Positions 26,755 to 31,462 of a stretch of DNA of 32,000 nucleotides are shown here, piece by piece (the first letter of the stretch is position 1; the number at the start of each line of letters is the position of its first letter). The DNA comes from Mycoplasma mycoides subsp. capri. Its GTDB lineage: Bacteria; Bacillota_I; Bacilli_A; Mycoplasmatales; Mycoplasmataceae. The stretch covers positions 630,001-662,000 of the forward strand of contig NZ_CP065581.1 of the NCBI RefSeq assembly GCF_018389705.1. The letters are read 5' to 3'. The position numbers and the translations under genes are program-made. The notes beneath the pieces are model-generated. The model was not told the origin of the DNA and ran no database searches. It was given only the letters and a program-made list of their open reading frames with translations.

Positions 26755-26775
26755 TATAAATATTTTATATTTATA
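26755..26775 (+). promoter_or_regulatory. Conserved 21-bp palindrome (promoter/operator), copy A
   Basis: TATAAATAT-TTT-ATATTTATA, with perfect 9-bp arms; contains TATAAA/TATATT -10-like hexamers. Confidence 0.6.
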
Positions 26776-26873
26776 CGTTGATTGCGAAGAAGGTTCACTG
26801 AACGAAGGCTTCCGGCGGTGAAGCCAGAAATAAATAGAACCAAAAATAGAACTCCTTTTAGGGTTCTTTTTTT
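26776..26873 (+). ncRNA. Candidate small RNA or leader, class 1, copy A (upstream of P1)
   Basis: G+C-rich body. Helix GGTTC (26792-26796) / GAACC (26837-26841) encloses hairpin GGCTTC-cggcggt-GAAGCC (26807-26825). Terminator AGAACTCC-tttt-AGGGTTCT plus T7 ends at 26873. The 5' end is inferred. Confidence 0.6.
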
Positions 26874-26926
26874 ATATATAATTAGTATCTAATTAGAAAG
26901 ATAAACTAAGATTTATTAGTAGTTTA

Positions 26927-27655
26927 ATGTTTGGTACAGTATTTAGATTTAGAAATTTAGATAATACATTACCAATAACAAGAGATAGATATTTTGAACC
27001 TATAGATACCAGTGGTAAAAAACTTCACCGTCCTTATGTTGTTTTTTATTCTGATGATAAGGTTTATTATTTATCTGTTAAAACATTAAAAAAAAAAGAA
27101 AATGAAGCTTCTGTTTATAGAAACCAAGATACTAATGTAATCTTATTAAATAAAACTGTTTATTATGAACCAGTTAAAGGTGAAGCTCTTGGTAATGTAA
27201 TAGATTGTTCATCTGTAAATATAATGGATAGAAAATTATTTGAACAATTATTTGAAAAAGACAGTTTTAAAAATAATTACCAACTAGCTCCTTGAATTTA
27301 TGATCAAGTAATGAACAAACTTTATGAAAATAAAAATAATTTAGTCTTCCATGAAGTAACTGGTTTTAATGACAACAAGGTTGAATGAATGATTGATAAA
27401 ACAAAAACTGAGCAGGGTCGTTTAGAGTATGAAAAATGACGAACAAGAGTTGAAAAAGTAATCACAACTGTAATAGAAATTTATCATTCAATTTCAAGAG
27501 ATGATATAGAAAAAAGATTAAACAATCAAGAAGAATACGTTAAATTTATTAGTCCAATCTATTATGATGAATTAGAATACGTTTATAAATCTTTTGAAAT
27601 AGATGATAAATGAGAAGAATATCAAAAAAGTAATTCTAATAAGCATAAGATGTAA
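26927..27655 (+). CDS. P1: PemK/MazF/ToxN-like N-terminal domain protein with a helical C-terminal domain (candidate toxin)
   Basis: Track ORF 26927-27295 extended across 4 TGA codons (every codon hand-translated) to the TAA at 27653; 242 aa. Motifs GTVFRF, HRPYVVFYSDDKVYYLSVKT and GNVIDCSSVNIMDRKLF. Confidence 0.8.
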
Positions 27656-27796
27656 TTAAGATTATAGGGGTTCTTTTTTTTATACTTATTGGGTATCGCT
27701 TCCTAATATATACTAAGTAAATGTAAAATATAAATATATAAAATAGTTTGCTTGCTATTAATTACAACATCAAAAATTATTATGATATAGTTAAAG

Positions 27797-27817
27797 TATA
27801 AATATTTTATATTTATA
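27797..27817 (+). promoter_or_regulatory. Conserved 21-bp palindrome, copy B
   Basis: Identical TATAAATATTTTATATTTATA. Confidence 0.6.
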
Positions 27818-27916
27818 AGATTGGTGGTTGTAGTTCTTCCGGCCCTGTCTACCATTTGAGATGACGAAATTGAGAATAGAACTAAGTTAGAACTCTCTTA
27901 AAGGAGTTCTTTTTTT
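27818..27916 (+). ncRNA. Candidate small RNA or leader, class 2, copy B (upstream of P2)
   Basis: TGGTGG / CTACCA helix. AGTTCT (27832-27837) is complementary to two AGAACT copies (27878-27883 and 27889-27894). Terminator AGAACTC-tcttaaag-GAGTTCT plus T7 ends at 27916. Confidence 0.6.
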
Positions 27917-27958
27917 ATATAATTTAGTTATATATCTTAAAAAAATAGTAGGTATCAA

Positions 27959-28897
27959 ATGGGTATAGAAGCAGGTAAAATCTATAAAAATCGAAACCAA
28001 GAATATAATTTTTTTATAGCAAAAGATAAAGATGATGAAGTAATTAAAGGTCATGGTATAAATAGACCATTTATTATATTTTATAGTGATGATAAAGTTT
28101 ATTACTTATCTGCTAAAAGTATTAGTAAAAAGAATAGAAAAAAAACTTTAGCTGATAAGTTTAATGTTGTTTTTAAAACAGATCTATATGGAGAAGATAA
28201 AGAAGTAGCTATAAATTGTTCAGTTATAAATATAATGGATAGAAAATTATTTGAAAGTTTATATGTTAAAGATGATGATATGAACAATTTTCAAACTACT
28301 CCATGACACTATGATAAGATAATGGGAACTTTATATAGATATTTTGATGAAATAACATATGCTGAAGCTTCACATATTGATAATGATACGCAACAATTAG
28401 TGTGAAAATCTACTTTAGAATCTAAATTAAATAAATTAGATTGTTTAAAAGTAATCAAAGGGTATAACTATCTTTTATTTGAAAGTGATATATCAAGAAA
28501 AGAGTTGCTAGATAATCCTGATAAATTTTTTAGTTTAGTTACAAGCTTTTATGAAAGAGTTAAATTTGAAACTCAAGAAGATTTTGATGAATATGTTATT
28601 ACACACCAAGAAATGGAATCTATCAAATATGAAGTGCACATTAAAAATGCAATTAAAGAACTAAAACAAAATCTAGAAAAAGAAAAAGAACAACATAAAC
28701 TATTAGAACAAGAGATAGATGTTGTTAAAAAACTAAATTATAAAAATAGTAAAATACAAGAGATGAACCAAGAGCTTAAAGATTGAGAAGAATTAGTTGA
28801 AATATCATCACATAAAACAAATAAAACTAATTCTGATAAAAAAACTGATGAACCAGATAAACCTAAGCAAAATCAATCTAGCAAGCTTAAAATGTAA
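27959..28897 (+). CDS. P2: divergent paralog of P1/P3 (candidate toxin) with a longer Glu/Lys-rich C-terminus
   Basis: Track ORFs 27959-28306 and 28505-28786 are in frame; the junction was hand-translated across TGAs. 312 aa; TAA at 28895. Motifs GKIYK, NRPFIIFYSDDKVYYLSAKS and AINCSVINIMDRKLF. Confidence 0.8.
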
Positions 28898-28952
28898 TTA
28901 AAACTATAATATCTTACTATATATTAAGTAAGTAATAAAGATATAATAAAGA

Positions 28953-28973
28953 TATAAATATTTTATATTTATA
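28953..28973 (+). promoter_or_regulatory. Conserved 21-bp palindrome, copy C
   Basis: Identical TATAAATATTTTATATTTATA. Confidence 0.6.
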
Positions 28974-29070
28974 GGTTGAGCGGTAGCAAGTTCATCTAAA
29001 CCGTGACTTCCGGCGGTGAAGTCTAAATAATTTGAACTAAAAATAGAACTCCTTTTAGGGGTTATTTTTT
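28974..29070 (+). ncRNA. Candidate small RNA, class 1, copy C (orphan, in tandem with D)
   Basis: AGTTCA (28989-28994) / TGAACT (29033-29038). Hairpin GACTTC-cggcggt-GAAGTC (29005-29023). The terminator 3' arm is weakened (GGGGTTA) and followed by T6. Confidence 0.55.
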
Positions 29071-29188
29071 ATACTTAATATATACTAAGTAAGTATAAAA
29101 TATATTATAAAATATGAACTTTATGCATATTAAATAATTTATTTTGATGTTATTTTCAAATACAAAAATTAATATGATATAGTTAAAG

Positions 29189-29209: not shown

Positions 29210-29307
29210 CATTGAGCGGCAGTGGGTTCATCTGGTCATGGCGTCCGGAAGTGATGCCGAAAATAATTGAACTAAAAATAGAACTCCTTTTAGGGGGTTC
29301 TTTTTTT
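29210..29307 (+). ncRNA. Candidate small RNA or leader, class 1, copy D (upstream of P3)
   Basis: GGTTCA (29225-29230) / TGAACT (29268-29273). Hairpin GGCGTC-cggaagt-GATGCC (29240-29258). Terminator AGAACTCC-tttta-GGGGGTTCT plus T7. Confidence 0.6.
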
Positions 29308-29345
29308 GTATAATCAATATGTAATAGAAAGATAAACTAAGATTT

Positions 29346-30092
29346 ATGAATAGTGGAATGTACGGTAAAGTGTTTAGATTTAGAAATTTAGATAATACAT
29401 TACCAATAGCAAGAGATAGTCTTTTTAAAAATATACCAACTGATAATAGTAAACTTCACCGTCCTTATGTTGTTTTTTATTCTGATGATAAAGTTTATTT
29501 TTTAAATGTTAAAACACTAAAAGAAAAAAATAAAAATAATGTTGATAAGTACATAGATACTAATGTAATCTTATTAAATAAAACTATTTATAATCAACCA
29601 ATTAAAGGTGAAGCTCTGGGTAATGTAATAGATTGTTCAGTCGTAAATATAATGAATAGAAAATTATTTGAACAACTTTACCAAGAAGATGAGTATTATA
29701 ATAACTATCAATTAGCTCCTTGAATTTATGATCAAGTAATGAATAAACTTTATGAGAATAAAGATAATTTGATAGTTCATCAACTCAAAGCTTTTGATTT
29801 TGAAAATAATAAAACTCTTTGATATGAAACTACAAAATCTAATGACAAGCAAAATTCAACTGATAACAATAAGTGATTAGCTAGAGCTAAAAAAGTAATC
29901 ACAACTGTAATAGAAACTTATCATTCAATTTCAAGAGATGAAATAGAAAAAAGATTAAATAATCAAGAAGAATACATTAAATACATTAGTCCAATCTATT
30001 ATAACGAATTAGAATACGTTTATAATTCTTTTGAAATAGATGATAAATGAGAAGAATATCAAAAAAGTAATTCTAATAAACATAAGATGTAA
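29346..30092 (+). CDS. P3: close paralog of P1 (candidate toxin)
   Basis: Track ORF 29346-29723 extended across TGAs to the TAA at 30090; 248 aa. The C-terminal 70 aa are nearly identical to P1 (KVITTVIE.YHSISRD.IEKRLNNQEEY...DDKWEEYQKSNSNKHKM). An alternative start is the ATG at 29358. Confidence 0.8.
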
Positions 30093-30094
30093 TT

Positions 30095-30119
30095 AAGACT
30101 ATAATATAGTCTTTTTTTT
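30095..30119 (+). terminator. Rho-independent terminator of P3
   Basis: AAGACTATA-a-TATAGTCTT followed by a T-run. Confidence 0.7.
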
Positions 30120-30234
30120 ATACTTAATATATACTAAGTAAGTATAAAATATTATAAACATATAAACTTTATGCATATTAAATAATTATTTTGATATTAA
30201 TTGCAATACCAAAATTATTATGATATATTTAAAG

Positions 30235-30255
30235 TATAAATATTTTATATTTATA
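30235..30255 (+). promoter_or_regulatory. Conserved 21-bp palindrome, copy E
   Basis: Identical TATAAATATTTTATATTTATA. Confidence 0.6.
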
Positions 30256-30353
30256 CGTTGAGTGGCAGTGAGTTCATCTGGTCATGGCGGACGATTGGTG
30301 AAGCCGAAAATAATTGAACTAAAAATAGAACTCCTTTTAGGGGTTCTTTTTTT
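30256..30353 (+). ncRNA. Candidate small RNA, class 1, copy E (orphan, inner hairpin disrupted)
   Basis: Same outer GTTCA/TGAAC and terminator as copy D. The inner hairpin 5' arm reads GGCGGAC against the 3' arm GAAGCC, so only GGC/GCC can pair. Confidence 0.5.
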
Positions 30354-30468
30354 ATACTTAATATATACTAAGTAAATATAAAATATAAGAATAATATAAA
30401 CTTTATACATATTAAATAGTTTTCTTGCTATTAGTTGCAATACCAAAATTATTATGATATAGTTAAAC

Positions 30469-30489
30469 TATAAATATTTTATATTTATG
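30469..30489 (+). promoter_or_regulatory. Conserved palindrome, copy F (last base differs)
   Basis: TATAAATATTTTATATTTATg. Confidence 0.55.
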
Positions 30490-30588
30490 ATATCGGTGGT
30501 TATAGTTCTTCCGGCCATGTCTACCATTTGAGATGACGAAATTGAGAATAGAACTAAGTTAGAACTCTCTTAGAAGAGTTCTTTTTTT
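30490..30588 (+). ncRNA. Candidate small RNA, class 2, copy F (orphan)
   Basis: Near-identical to copy B (GGTGG/CTACC, AGTTCT, two AGAACT). Terminator AGAACTCT-cttaga-AGAGTTCT plus T7. Confidence 0.55.
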
Positions 30589-30701
30589 ATACTTAATATA
30601 TACTAAGTAAATATAAAATATATTAGAACGTATAAACTTTGTATATGTATTAAGTATTTTTTTATTTTTGCAAGTCCAGAATTAATATGATATAGTTAAA
30701 G

Positions 30702-30722
30702 TATAAATATTTTATATTTATA
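30702..30722 (+). promoter_or_regulatory. Conserved 21-bp palindrome, copy G
   Basis: Identical TATAAATATTTTATATTTATA. Confidence 0.6.
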
Positions 30723-30820
30723 AGTTGAGCGGTAGCAAGTTCATCTAAACCGTGACTTCCGGCGGTGAAGTCTAAATAATTTGAACTAAAAATAGAACTC
30801 CTTTTGAGAGTTCTTTTTTT
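30723..30820 (+). ncRNA. Candidate small RNA, class 1, copy G (orphan; 114 nt upstream of the DUF285 gene)
   Basis: Body identical to copy C. Terminator 3' arm changed to GAGAGTTCT (AGAACTC/GAGTTCT pairing), followed by T7. Confidence 0.55.
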
Positions 30821-30934
30821 ATACTTAATACGTACTAACTAACTTTAAAATATATTAGAAAAATTAAATTTTATCTATATTAAATAGTTTGCTTGTTATT
30901 TATTTAAAATAATATTAAAAATAAATTAAAGATT

Positions 30935-31462
30935 ATGATGAATAAAATTATAAAACAACCAGTTTATAATACTAATCAAACTGAATGCTTAGAAATTGGA
31001 TATGAATGATATGATAATCAAATATCAATTATTCCATTTCCTCATACTATTAAAAAAGTTCCAAGAGTTTTACCAACTCAAATTACTAGTTTAGAAAATG
31101 CCTTTATTTATAATCAAAATGAATTTATTGATGGAATAGAGTACTGAGATACATCAAATATAACTAATATGTATTCTATGTTTTATGAAGCTAATAATTT
31201 TAATCAAAATATTAGCATGTGAGATGTAAGTAATGTTGTTGATATGAGTTATATGTTTTGTTGAGCTTATAAATTTAATCAAGACATTTCAAATTGAAAT
31301 GTAAGTAATGTTAAATATATGAATGATATGTTTTATTGTGCTAATAATTTTAATCAAAATATTTCTAAATGAAATGTAAGTAATGTAAAAAAGGATTATC
31401 AAAATATTGGTAGTGGTGGGTTTAATTGAAAAGATGAGTTTAAACCTAAGTTTAATAAATAG
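30935..31462 (+). CDS. DUF285-type (BspA-like leucine-rich repeat) protein
   Basis: Fully hand-translated: 175 aa with 7 TGA = Trp codons. Repeats of the form MF..A..FNQ.IS.W[DN]VSNV are characteristic of the Mollicutes DUF285 family. TAG at 31460. Confidence 0.8.

Follow-up and report, generated by a model that had tools for sequence, protein, structure and literature searches.

The RNA units E, F, and G at the end of a cassette array in Mycoplasma mycoides subsp. capri are intact extra copies of the catalogued Mycoplasma small RNA MCS4 (Rfam RF02713), and comparison of loci across genomes supports MCS4 RNA and the P gene that follows it, a member of the Mbov_0400 family, as a real two-part module. 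The window is the whole 32,000-nt stretch that was analyzed (contig NZ_CP065581.1, positions 630,001 to 662,000). The RNA is not a new class: all 7 RNA copies in the window align to RF02713 across the entire model. MCS4 was reportedly first described in M. capricolum by Ushida and Muto in 1993 and is not known to have been assigned a function since then. What is new here, as read from sequence, is the systematic pairing of MCS4 with P genes, with matched RNA class and protein clade. The explanation that fits best as a whole is an array of MCS4 cassettes in which the RNA is the partner, and probably the antidote, of a putative P toxin, and we lean toward it, if only slightly.

Anatomy of the MCS4 units E, F, and G

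The tail of the array contains the following features:

30201..30229, + strand: promoter of E (TTGCAA, 17 nt, TG-extended TATATT)
30235..30354, + strand: RNA E, subclass 1b (RF02713, 58.6 bits, model 1-123; fold z = -2.6)
30355..30468, + strand: spacer S between E and F, opening with the junction palindrome CTTAATATATACTAAG (30357-30372) and closing with the F promoter
30435..30463, + strand: promoter of F (extended -10)
30469..30589, + strand: RNA F, class 2 (RF02713, 58.3 bits, model 1-123)
30590..30701, + strand: spacer S between F and G, with the junction palindrome at 30592-30607 and the G promoter inside
30668..30696, + strand: promoter of G (extended -10)
30702..30821, + strand: RNA G, subclass 1c (RF02713, 42.7 bits, E = 9e-4, model 1-123; nhmmer E = 6e-24; fold z = -3.1)
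30822..30934, + strand: degenerate terminal spacer, leading into the start of a DUF285 gene

Three units with a period of about 234 nt, each with a hairpin and a terminator, and with no P open reading frame (ORF) between them, had been described from the letters alone, in the class order 1, 2, 1. Their coordinates and anatomy hold, and identity comparison refines the class order to 1b, 2, 1c. The units are about 120 nt long, with start-to-start distances of 234 nt (E to F) and 233 nt (F to G), and the spacers between units measure 113-115 nt. Relative to the RF02713 gathering score of 56 bits, E and F lie above the threshold and G (42.7 bits) lies below it. The promoters of all three take the form TTGCAA-17 nt-TG-n-TATAGT/TATATT, and every TG-extended promoter match on the + strand between 26600 and 31000 is situated just 5' of an RNA copy. 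Each RNA begins with an invariant 5' hairpin, TATAAATAT-TTT-ATATTTATA, which is common to all copies, and ends in a G+C-rich hairpin followed by T7; between these, RNA E has a central domain with a GUUCA/UGAAC closing stem. A scan returned 9 terminator-like sites compared with 0.5 expected, and one such site ends each of the 7 RNAs. The loops are class-specific (GGACGAUUGGUGAA in E, UACCAUUUGAGAU in F, and UUCCGGCGGUGAA in G). The RNA copies are not short tandem repeats and carry no sign of processing, and the + strand of 30092-30935 contains no ORF of at least 70 aa (translation table 4).

The inner hairpin and the long-range stem of the MCS4 units are backed by covariation. At the middle position of the central hairpin, 14 copies have GC, 7 have TA, 7 have CG, and 3 have AT, with all 31 copies paired there; next to the GUUC/GAAC stem, the flanking pair is AT in 19 copies, GC in 7, and GU in 6. 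These counts were made with anchored patterns. RNAalifold on a MAFFT alignment recovered nothing beyond the inner hairpin, owing to a one-column shift between classes 1 and 2. Single-sequence folds recover the structural elements of RF02713 for the class 1 copies, and do not recover the central domain of the class 2 copies, B and F.

These features bear on two other readings of the units. Copies A (26782-26892), D (29212-29313), and E (30262-30375) are each crossed by a short ORF that starts at GTG or TTG, as would be expected if the units encoded small proteins acting as protein antitoxins rather than RNAs. However, start codon, frame, and length vary between subclasses (in G the frame stops after 17 codons), the ORFs traverse the terminator hairpins, and the sequences fit an RNA covariance model. 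Small ORFs were rejected as the content of the units, as the frames are not conserved and the stems are kept by compensatory base changes, which leaves protein antitoxins a very remote prospect. Alternatively, E, F, and G could have arisen recently, as by-products without a function, when unequal recombination took place in a region rich in repeats; the layout of the locus differs in every strain compared, and in CP068548 it is reduced to a single partial RNA. Against such an origin, each of the three units still has a complete promoter, aligns to the model over its full length, and retains paired stems and a terminator, their model scores match those of P-linked copies, and the same arrangement is found in two independent assemblies. 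We consider it improbable that they are by-products of this kind.

Pairing of MCS4 with P genes

Upstream of E, the window holds the remainder of the array, for a cassette order of A-P1-B-P2-C-D-P3-E-F-G:

26755..26874, + strand: RNA A (subclass 1a), MCS4 (RF02713), directly 5' of P1
26927..27655, + strand: P1, 242 aa, Mbov_0400 family (NF045891)
~27656-27690, + strand: chimeric P/RNA terminator at the P1 3' end, AAGATTAT joined to AGGGGTTCTTTTTTTT
27797..27917, + strand: RNA B (class 2), MCS4 (RF02713), directly 5' of P2
27959..28897, + strand: P2, 312 aa, "GHGINRP" clade of the Mbov_0400 family (NF045891)
28953..29072, + strand: RNA C (subclass 1c), MCS4 (RF02713), 55 nt 3' of P2
29189..29308, + strand: RNA D (subclass 1b), MCS4 (RF02713), directly 5' of P3, with a TGTATAAT box after the T-run
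29346..30092, + strand: P3, 248 aa (TGA=Trp), Mbov_0400 family (NF045891)
~30095-30119, + strand: hairpin terminator of P3 itself

All 7 copies resemble MCS4 in their length of about 120 nt, 5' hairpin, central domain, and terminator; the difference is that here MCS4 forms a family of seven genes and four subclasses within 4 kb that is tied to a protein family. E is 88% identical to D, and G is 94% identical to C. The sequence-only reading had counted E, F, and G as the orphans, and none of them has a P gene after it; however, RNA C, which has neither a long spacer nor a promoter, is likewise followed by no P gene, so that 4 of the 7 RNAs are orphans in that sense. For annotation, the array accounts for a 4-kb hypervariable region. 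An annotated 74-aa ORF in this region is spurious.

The arrangement of RNA and P gene recurs in other genomes. Across 11 loci, the P1/P3 and P2 clades together number 16 P genes, and each of the 16 has an MCS4 gene that ends no more than 40-50 nt upstream. These loci are chromosomal islands and integrative conjugative elements (ICEs) in M. mycoides, M. feriruminatoris, M. agalactiae, M. auris, and Mycoplasma sp. HU2014. The RNA class tracks the protein clade in every case, with class 1 RNA before the P1/P3 clade (7/7) and class 2 RNA before the GHGINRP clade (9/9), and this concordance spans the split between the mycoides cluster and the Hominis group. The genome scan for P/MCS4 loci returned Hominis-group loci only, and M. 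capricolum, the source of MCS4, lay outside the comparison. Other P clades have analogous promoter-hairpin-terminator units as variants. That RNA and P gene form a module, as had been proposed, is borne out in all loci examined, those on ICEs and in distant Hominis-group species among them, except for one in M. yeatsii, in which the P gene is truncated and without an upstream RNA, and an IS is inserted upstream.

Every P start codon has a hairpin with a T-run 7-50 nt before it, and for 19 of 20 P genes TATAAT comes 1-10 nt after the RNA terminator. P is apparently transcribed from a promoter of its own, without reliance on read-through. P-preceding RNAs continue with (A/G)TATAAT... and the leader TAGAAAGATAAACTAAGATTT, in agreement with the earlier observation that a leader, not the spacer, follows P-linked copies. 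The count of 7 RNAs to 3 P genes in the window also holds, and a surplus of RNA is usual elsewhere, with ratios of 8:2, 2:1, 2:1, 4:1, and 3:1 at other loci. Runs of 2-4 RNAs stand before a single P gene across M. agalactiae (3), M. auris, and strain CP065583 (4). In none of the loci seen does an RNA of subclass 1c, to which C and G belong, immediately precede a P gene.

In the literature open to search on MCS4, Mbov_0400, and mycoplasma type III systems, no link between the RNA and the protein was found. For instance, neither MCS4 nor Mbov_0400 is mentioned in a paper on toxin-antitoxin systems of M. mycoides (PMC8562856) or in one on the ICE of M. agalactiae (PMC6030558).

Junctions and the origin of the orphan copies

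The 3' continuation of E and F, ATACTTAATATATACTAAGTAA, is exactly that found behind the P3 terminator at 30120. The sequence-only reading had extended this to all three orphans, which is correct for E and F, but the junction 3' of G has diverged (ATACTTAATACGTACTAACTAA). Strain CP065583 has the same flank behind its last RNA as is found here behind G. Percent identities point to separate histories for spacers and RNA bodies: the spacers following E and F are 91% identical while the RNAs themselves are 59% identical, and RNAs B and F are about 94-95% identical while their spacers are 67% identical.

It had been proposed that E, F, and G are what is left of former RNA-P modules after recombination of the RNA terminator with the P terminator, at their T-runs, had precisely removed P, with the RNAs kept as anti-addiction or buffer antitoxins. 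Several observations are consistent with this. The RNA and P terminators have TTTTTTTATA in common, and the junctions of E and F are identical to that after the P3 terminator. Clear deletion scars, GTATAATTAA(C/T)GTGTA(A/G)TTG, in which the P promoter box and about 18 nt of leader are fused to the spacer, follow two orphan RNAs of the sister strain CP065583 (L016:8865 and L016:10314); a gene-loss origin of E, F, and G is possible because such scars exist. In addition, E is 94% identical to an MCS4 copy on the ICE of M. mycoides capri CP093215 (L001:5843-5963), and F is 95% identical to L016:9091 and 94% identical to L001:6889, both of which directly precede P2-type genes, as does B. The order of E and then F also matches that of the RNAs on the CP093215 ICE (1b-P, then 2-P).

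Other observations count against gene loss. The recombination mechanism finds precedent in the CP065583 scars and in the chimeric P1 terminator, but E, F, and G themselves are without a scar, and the documented event at the P1 3' end deleted an RNA gene, not a P gene. Comparison with related strains, in which intact P genes at the orphan positions had been anticipated, revealed none in four other arrangements of the locus. In M. agalactiae, M. auris, and CP065583, the runs of 2-4 RNAs that lead up to a single P gene imply that RNA units multiply without P genes, the spacers and RNA bodies differ in history, and the subclass of G has not been seen with a P gene. Since RNA surplus over P genes is the norm, gene loss is no better supported than duplication or exchange of a 234-bp unit. 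From the sequences compared, deletion of P genes and duplication or cassette exchange of 234-bp units are both possible origins of E, F, and G, and fit equally well; the full account, with precise loss at every orphan and retention as antitoxins, appears to us rather unlikely.

Orphan antitoxins can serve as anti-addiction modules, as chromosomal ccd homologues do against plasmid ccd. The suggestion that the orphans here play such a part gains from the resemblance that it would need: E and F are chromosomal, without an adjoining putative toxin gene, and 94% identical to the partner genes on an ICE of M. mycoides capri. The differences are that the antidote here would be an RNA and that matching P genes are still present in the array.

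A putative toxin and its RNA partner

P1, P2, and P3 score 122, 112, and 112.5 bits, respectively, against NCBIfam NF045891 (curated cut-off, 55 bits) over their N-terminal ~150 residues. NF045891 is the "Mbov_0400 family ICE element protein," a Mollicutes-restricted family that is found on ICEs and annotated without a function; its P genes are read with TGA=Trp. Sequence and profile searches of P against Pfam, PADLOC, PHROGs, and the PDB gave no relevant match, nor did tblastn with P2 against plasmid and phage collections. Two structure models of P, of moderate confidence (pLDDT 75-77), were compared with known folds. The best Foldseek matches of the P N-domain model in BFVD are an "Endoribonuclease" (E = 3e-3, probability 1.00, 140 columns), a PemK/MazF toxin (E = 7e-3, probability 1.00), and a PemK-like protein (E = 0.03, probability 0.97). 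Neither model matched anything in the PDB with E < 0.1; AbiQ (4glk) is the top-probability PDB match of the first model, at only 0.20, and is absent for the second. Comparison of P with 35 ToxN/AbiQ (PF13958) sequences by hhalign is non-significant (E = 0.08, probability 0.7%), with a best path that is collinear over four motifs; with ToxN alone E is 0.71, and global mode against ToxN/AbiQ gave nothing. These models suggest that the P N-domain probably has a MazF/ToxN-like endoribonuclease fold.

In the explanation that we favor, E, F, and G would be independently transcribed MCS4 genes, as predicted from their promoters and terminators, at the tail of a recombination-prone cassette array on the M. 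mycoides chromosome. The functional unit would consist of an MCS4 gene (promoter, 5' hairpin, class-specific central hairpin, and intrinsic terminator) followed by a P gene with its own TATAAT box adjoining the RNA terminator. MCS4 RNA would bind the matching P protein in trans and, the P N-domain being probably MazF/ToxN-like, would hold P inactive, as in a type III pair. The antidote would thus be a discrete structured small RNA gene, not an array of processed short repeats, and, with every RNA gene transcribed separately, copy number would set the dose. E (1b, matching the P3 type), F (class 2, matching the P2 type), and G (1c) would then be surplus partner RNAs, which would raise the ratio of RNA to protein and could also neutralize near-identical P proteins borne on ICEs. 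The copies would have arisen by recombination at the invariant borders, namely the 21-nt 5' hairpin with the promoter and the T-run with the ATACTTAATATATACTAAG junction. Counted against this explanation are the lack of a significant sequence or PDB-fold match of P to a known toxin, the moderate confidence of both structure models, the lack of short tandem repeats or signs of processing in the RNAs, the apparent promoter of P and its additional C-terminal domain, the M. yeatsii P gene without an RNA, and the lack of a partner P gene for subclass 1c (C and G) in the loci seen.

MCS4 might instead be a regulatory or structural partner of P and not its antidote, for example in a stable ribonucleoprotein serving the ICE, as a decoy, or as a leader controlling P synthesis, with the extra copies being spare or variant small RNA genes. 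Such a role would explain the pairing and the concordance of class and clade equally well, and it is in keeping with the absence of a significant link between P and any known toxin. Furthermore, the RNA terminator abuts the P -10 box, such that the P promoter could suffer interference when the RNA is transcribed, and MCS4 is said to be an abundant, stable RNA in M. capricolum. On the other hand, the best fold matches of P are endoribonuclease toxins, and hypervariable, duplicated, ICE-linked cassettes with an RNA surplus are typical of toxin-antitoxin or defense loci. Cis-acting leaders would also hardly be expected to occur as tandem RNA genes, each with a promoter and a terminator to itself; the reading of the units as leaders only was rejected. 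We judge a partner other than an antidote to be unlikely.

The putative antidote system can be compared with known toxin-antitoxin systems. Like the type III systems ToxIN, AbiQ/antiQ, CptIN, and TenpIN, the module has the order of noncoding RNA, intrinsic terminator, and protein gene; RNA units outnumber protein genes, each RNA type goes with its own protein type, the loci are on mobile elements, and P possibly has a MazF/ToxN-like endoribonuclease fold, as predicted. Unlike type III RNAs, which are repeats of 34-49 nt cut from one precursor, each unit here is a separate structured gene, about 120 nt long, that has a promoter and a terminator to itself, and the period is 169-234 nt. P also differs: it has a -10 box of its own and, at the C-terminus, an additional helical domain that is absent from known type III toxins, and it shows no significant homology to PF13958. 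Searches of Pfam and PADLOC did not assign it to a known type III toxin family (ToxN/AbiQ PF13958, CptN, or TenpN). The type II toxins PemK, MazF, and Kid provide the best predicted-fold matches of the P N-domain, but P shares no sequence similarity with them and has no adjacent protein antitoxin gene, its partner being an RNA.

Taken together, the pairing, the RNA surplus, and the predicted fold make a type III-like toxin-antitoxin reading plausible. A more specific proposal, which we put forward tentatively and at somewhat less than even confidence, is that MCS4 is the RNA antidote of an ICE-borne Mollicutes toxin family (NF045891) with a MazF/ToxN fold. This would be a new type III-like kind, with a discrete, separately transcribed small RNA gene, a dose set by copy number, and RNA and toxin co-diversifying as cassettes, and surplus arrays would give immunity against ICE addiction.

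The pairing would give MCS4 a role as the partner of P, probably as the antidote of a likely RNA-cutting toxin, as predicted. If true, both MCS4 and a family annotated merely as "ICE element protein" would gain a function, type III systems would be widened beyond processed repeat arrays, and near-minimal mycoplasmas, in which few toxin-antitoxin systems are known, would have their first RNA-antitoxin system. It also suggests how the ICEs of mycoplasmas, which are the principal carriers of gene flow among these pathogens, are stabilized, and how their hosts may escape.

The orphan units and the MCS4 family

In the array A-P1-B-P2-C-D-P3-E-F-G, three genes of the Mbov_0400 protein family (P1 to P3; P is any gene of that family) are interspersed with seven RNA copies (A to G), of which E, F and G, and likewise copy C, are orphans, having no P gene after them:

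26927-27655, P1, 242 aa (table 4)
27959-28897, P2, 312 aa (table 4)
29346-30092, P3, 248 aa (table 4)
30235-30354, E, RNA unit, class 1b
30469-30589, F, RNA unit, class 2
30702-30821, G, RNA unit, class 1c

The window has a G+C content of 21.8% and reads TGA as tryptophan; over the array region it matches GCA_000339035.1 at 100% identity. The sequence-only reading described the E-F-G array accurately: the units are spaced by 234 and 233 nt, each with its own hairpin and terminator, and no ORF lies between them. Each has a promoter (TTGCAA-17 nt-TG-extended -10), an invariant 21-nt 5' hairpin (TATAAATATTTTATATTTATA) and a G+C-rich 3' hairpin followed by a T7 run. All TG-extended promoter matches on the + strand lie upstream of an RNA copy, and a scan for terminators gave 9 sites where shuffles predict 0.5, each of the seven copies ending at one of them. 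The junctions agree with it: E and F are followed by ATACTTAATATATACTAAGTAA, as is the P3 terminator, whereas A, B and D are followed by a TATAAT box and then the P leader. An ORF of 74 aa on the - strand (30186-30410), antisense to RNA E, is annotated in public assemblies of this genome (L022:2954-3178, L025:860-1084); it overlaps the sRNA gene E and its promoter and is most likely a spurious gene call. That the units encode small proteins is a less well supported explanation.

The seven copies are members of MCS4 (Rfam RF02713, "Mycoplasma sRNA"): each aligns with model positions 1-123, at bit scores of 66.1 (B), 58.6 (E), 58.3 (F), 52.0 (D), 42.7 (G), 37.2 (C) and 35.2 (A) against a gathering score of 56 bits. 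Work of the 1990s reportedly described this RNA from M. capricolum, an abundant species of ~125 nt resembling U6 snRNA, with no function assigned. Minimum-free-energy folding, applied to seven copies, recovers the 5' hairpin and the terminator in each of them. A central domain (closed by GUUC/GAAC, with an inner hairpin) also emerges in most of the class 1 copies and in the M. agalactiae copy, but B and F, of class 2, do not show it. In 32 copies taken from 12 loci, the inner hairpin has its middle pair formed throughout (GC 14, TA 7, CG 7, AT 3), and the pair that flanks the long-range stem is AT in 19, GC in 7 and GU in 6, which supports the secondary structure; the inner-hairpin loop is class-specific. 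The 21-nt 5' hairpin is identical or changed by a single base in nearly all of ~25 mycoides-cluster copies (window, L001, L016, L017, L018, L023, L026), across classes that share only 55% identity elsewhere. Such constancy points to one of two things, strong constraint or concerted evolution at a recombination border.

Pairing of MCS4 with P genes

Each P gene examined in the P1/P3 and P2 clades has an MCS4 gene ending no more than 50 nt upstream. Class 1 RNAs precede the P1/P3 clade (7/7) and class 2 RNAs the "GHGINRP" clade that includes P2 (9/9), a pairing that holds across the deepest split in the genus. Pairs in the Hominis group are found in M. agalactiae 5632, M. auris (two loci) and Mycoplasma sp. 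HU2014; those of the M. mycoides cluster are listed in the Table. The exception is the P gene of M. yeatsii CP007520 (L027:3581-5576), the only one without an upstream RNA, which is shortened to 191 aa and has an IS (rve transposase) inserted directly upstream. The conserved RNA-protein module appears to be undescribed.

Table. MCS4-P pairs and RNA:P gene ratios
Locus; pairs; RNA:P
Window; 3; 7:3
CP065583, syntenic locus; 2; 8:2 (four RNAs before P1', two before P2', two after P2')
CP065574, syntenic locus; 1; 2:1
CP065586, syntenic locus; 1; 2:1
M. mycoides capri CP093215, ICE; 2; -
CP065577, ICE; 2; -
M. feriruminatoris; 1; -
M. agalactiae L007; -; 4:1
M. auris L003; -; 3:1

Other P clades have analogous upstream units (promoter, 5' hairpin, terminator) that do not score as MCS4. 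A related but distinct sRNA-like unit lies upstream of another Mbov_0400-family clade in M. agalactiae and M. auris (L004:9866-9975, L011:9862-9968, L012:9863-9968, L007:12905-13028, L014:358-487); it has a promoter, a 5' hairpin, a terminator and a covarying stem (GGUAG/CUACC vs GUGG/CCAC), and scores in Rfam neither as MCS4 nor as any other family.

In 19 of 20 P genes, taken from very distant species (window regions 26875-26926, 27918-27958 and 29309-29345; L001, L003, L004, L007-L011, L013, L015-L018, L023), a perfect TATAAT follows the RNA terminator, 1-10 nt past its T-run and 7-45 nt before the ATG; the orphan RNAs have TATACT at this site. From this placement, P is probably transcribed from a promoter of its own that is set against the RNA terminator, an arrangement that may couple the two transcription units. 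At Hominis-group loci the box lies just 7-9 nt before the ATG, so that P mRNAs would be nearly leaderless.

Orphan RNAs are not unusual, as RNA genes exceed P genes across the loci compared (Table). In M. agalactiae L007, for instance, three tandem copies with a 169-nt period, each with its own promoter and terminator, directly precede the P gene. The syntenic locus, flanked by genes for a 500-aa membrane protein and a DUF285 protein, is arranged differently strain by strain, and in CP068548 (1.21-Mb genome) it is down to one partial RNA. The DUF285 gene 3' of the array (30935-31462) contains three internal 75-nt (25-aa) repeats (31119-31386), and DUF285 genes also adjoin the P gene of M. yeatsii. 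In these loci, on mobile and hypervariable DNA, the sRNA genes are intact, are paired with protein genes that match them, and outnumber those genes; that E, F and G are functionless relics is less well supported.

Origin of the orphan copies

The sequence-only reading, partly supported overall and confirmed in its observation, took E, F and G for leftovers of precise P-gene loss, which is possible. RNA and P terminators have TTTTTTTATA in common, the order E-F is the RNA order in the CP093215 ICE (94% identity each), and two CP065583 orphan RNAs retain GTATAATTAA(C/T)GTGTA(A/G)TTG, which comprises the P promoter box and 18 nt of the P leader and is joined directly to the spacer, an unambiguous deletion scar. 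However, E, F and G carry no such scar, G belongs to subclass 1c, never met before a P gene, and the P genes that this reading sought at the E, F and G positions are present in no related genome. Moreover, the spacers of the E and F units are 91% identical and their RNAs 59%, while RNAs B and F are 95% identical and their spacers 67%; these separate histories of spacers and RNA bodies point to exchange at invariant borders. The only event visible in the window runs in the opposite direction. The 3' end of P1 (27656-27720) is chimeric, with a 5' arm from a P terminator (AAGATTAT) and a 3' arm from an RNA terminator (AGGGGTTCTTTTTTTT). CP065583 carries a class 1b RNA gene at the corresponding site, which means that the window has lost an RNA gene by deletion. 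We conclude that E, F and G were made by recombination at unit borders, via gene loss or unit gain.

An imperfect 16-bp palindrome (CTTANTATATANTAAG) occurs at every cassette junction, directly after the T-runs of RNA and P terminators (27702-27717, 28913-28928, 29074-29089, 30123-30138, 30357-30372, 30592-30607; 6 matches vs 0.08 expected in the window), and also at the mycoides-cluster loci L001, L016, L023 and L026. Its role could be that of an operator or a recombination site, or it may be a mere part of the repeated spacer. After the chimeric P1 terminator, a 15-nt insert (TTGGGTATCGCTTCC) lies inside the palindrome. P2 lacks its own terminator, and RNA C starts only 55 nt on (28898-28952) without the usual -35 and extended -10; a deletion between AAAGATATAAAT in the spacer and the 5' end of RNA C seems to have removed its promoter. 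RNA C may be co-transcribed with P2 or driven by a bare TATAAT (28937-28942).

The P proteins and a possible mode of action

The N-terminal ~150 residues of P1-P3 match NCBIfam NF045891 (E = 1e-32 to 1e-35), and P3 shares 100% identity with an entry named "Mbov_0400 family ICE element protein [Mycoplasma mycoides]". Family members are few and restricted to Mollicutes (a search of 1.8 billion proteins gave 33 representatives at 50% identity, and a second search 40 clusters). One 154-aa member carries the label Vibrio harveyi (58-kb contig) but shares 98% identity with a protein of Mycoplasma sp. HU2014 and probably reflects a contaminated assembly. No matches to P were found in Pfam, PADLOC, PHROGs or PDB sequences, and no homologues in plasmid and phage collections.

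AlphaFold models of P were of moderate confidence (pLDDT 75 and 77, pTM 0.77 and 0.76). Foldseek returned nothing significant against the PDB, where AbiQ had the top probability for the first model (0.20). Against BFVD, the three top-ranked matches of the N-domain model were annotated "Endoribonuclease" (178 aa; E = 3e-3 and prob 1.00 over 140 aligned columns), PemK/MazF toxin (E = 7e-3, prob 1.00) and PemK-like protein (E = 0.03, prob 0.97). When P was compared profile to profile with 35 ToxN/AbiQ sequences, the result was not significant (E = 0.08); the best path is collinear across four motifs (K-Y-K-R with KFYTV; RPyVvFySddKvYYLsvK[ST] with RPyVGIVl..kY.aPLTSpK; lG.vInCs.INiMd with lG.In.lnnMIP; iY..Vm.KL with Yk.LL.k). 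A MazF/ToxN-like endoribonuclease fold is likely for P, while sequence, profile and PDB-fold searches did not establish membership of a known toxin family.

In the most likely mode of action, MCS4 RNA would bind and restrain a ribonuclease-like P protein in the style of type III toxin-antitoxin systems, with RNA dose set by gene copy number, not repeat number. Surplus copies such as E, F and G would then act as a buffer for the resident proteins P2 and P3, and might also disarm near-identical P proteins of incoming ICEs. A non-toxic RNA-protein complex or a regulatory RNA is less well supported. The likeness to type III systems is one of predicted mode of working; MCS4-P shows neither of two defining features, a toxin from a known family and an array of processed repeats, and therefore should not be filed as a type III member. 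The searchable literature holds no link of MCS4 to the P family and no type III system in mycoplasmas. Taken alone, E, F and G are unremarkable examples of an RNA family already known; their interest is the MCS4-P module that they reveal, which is directly testable.
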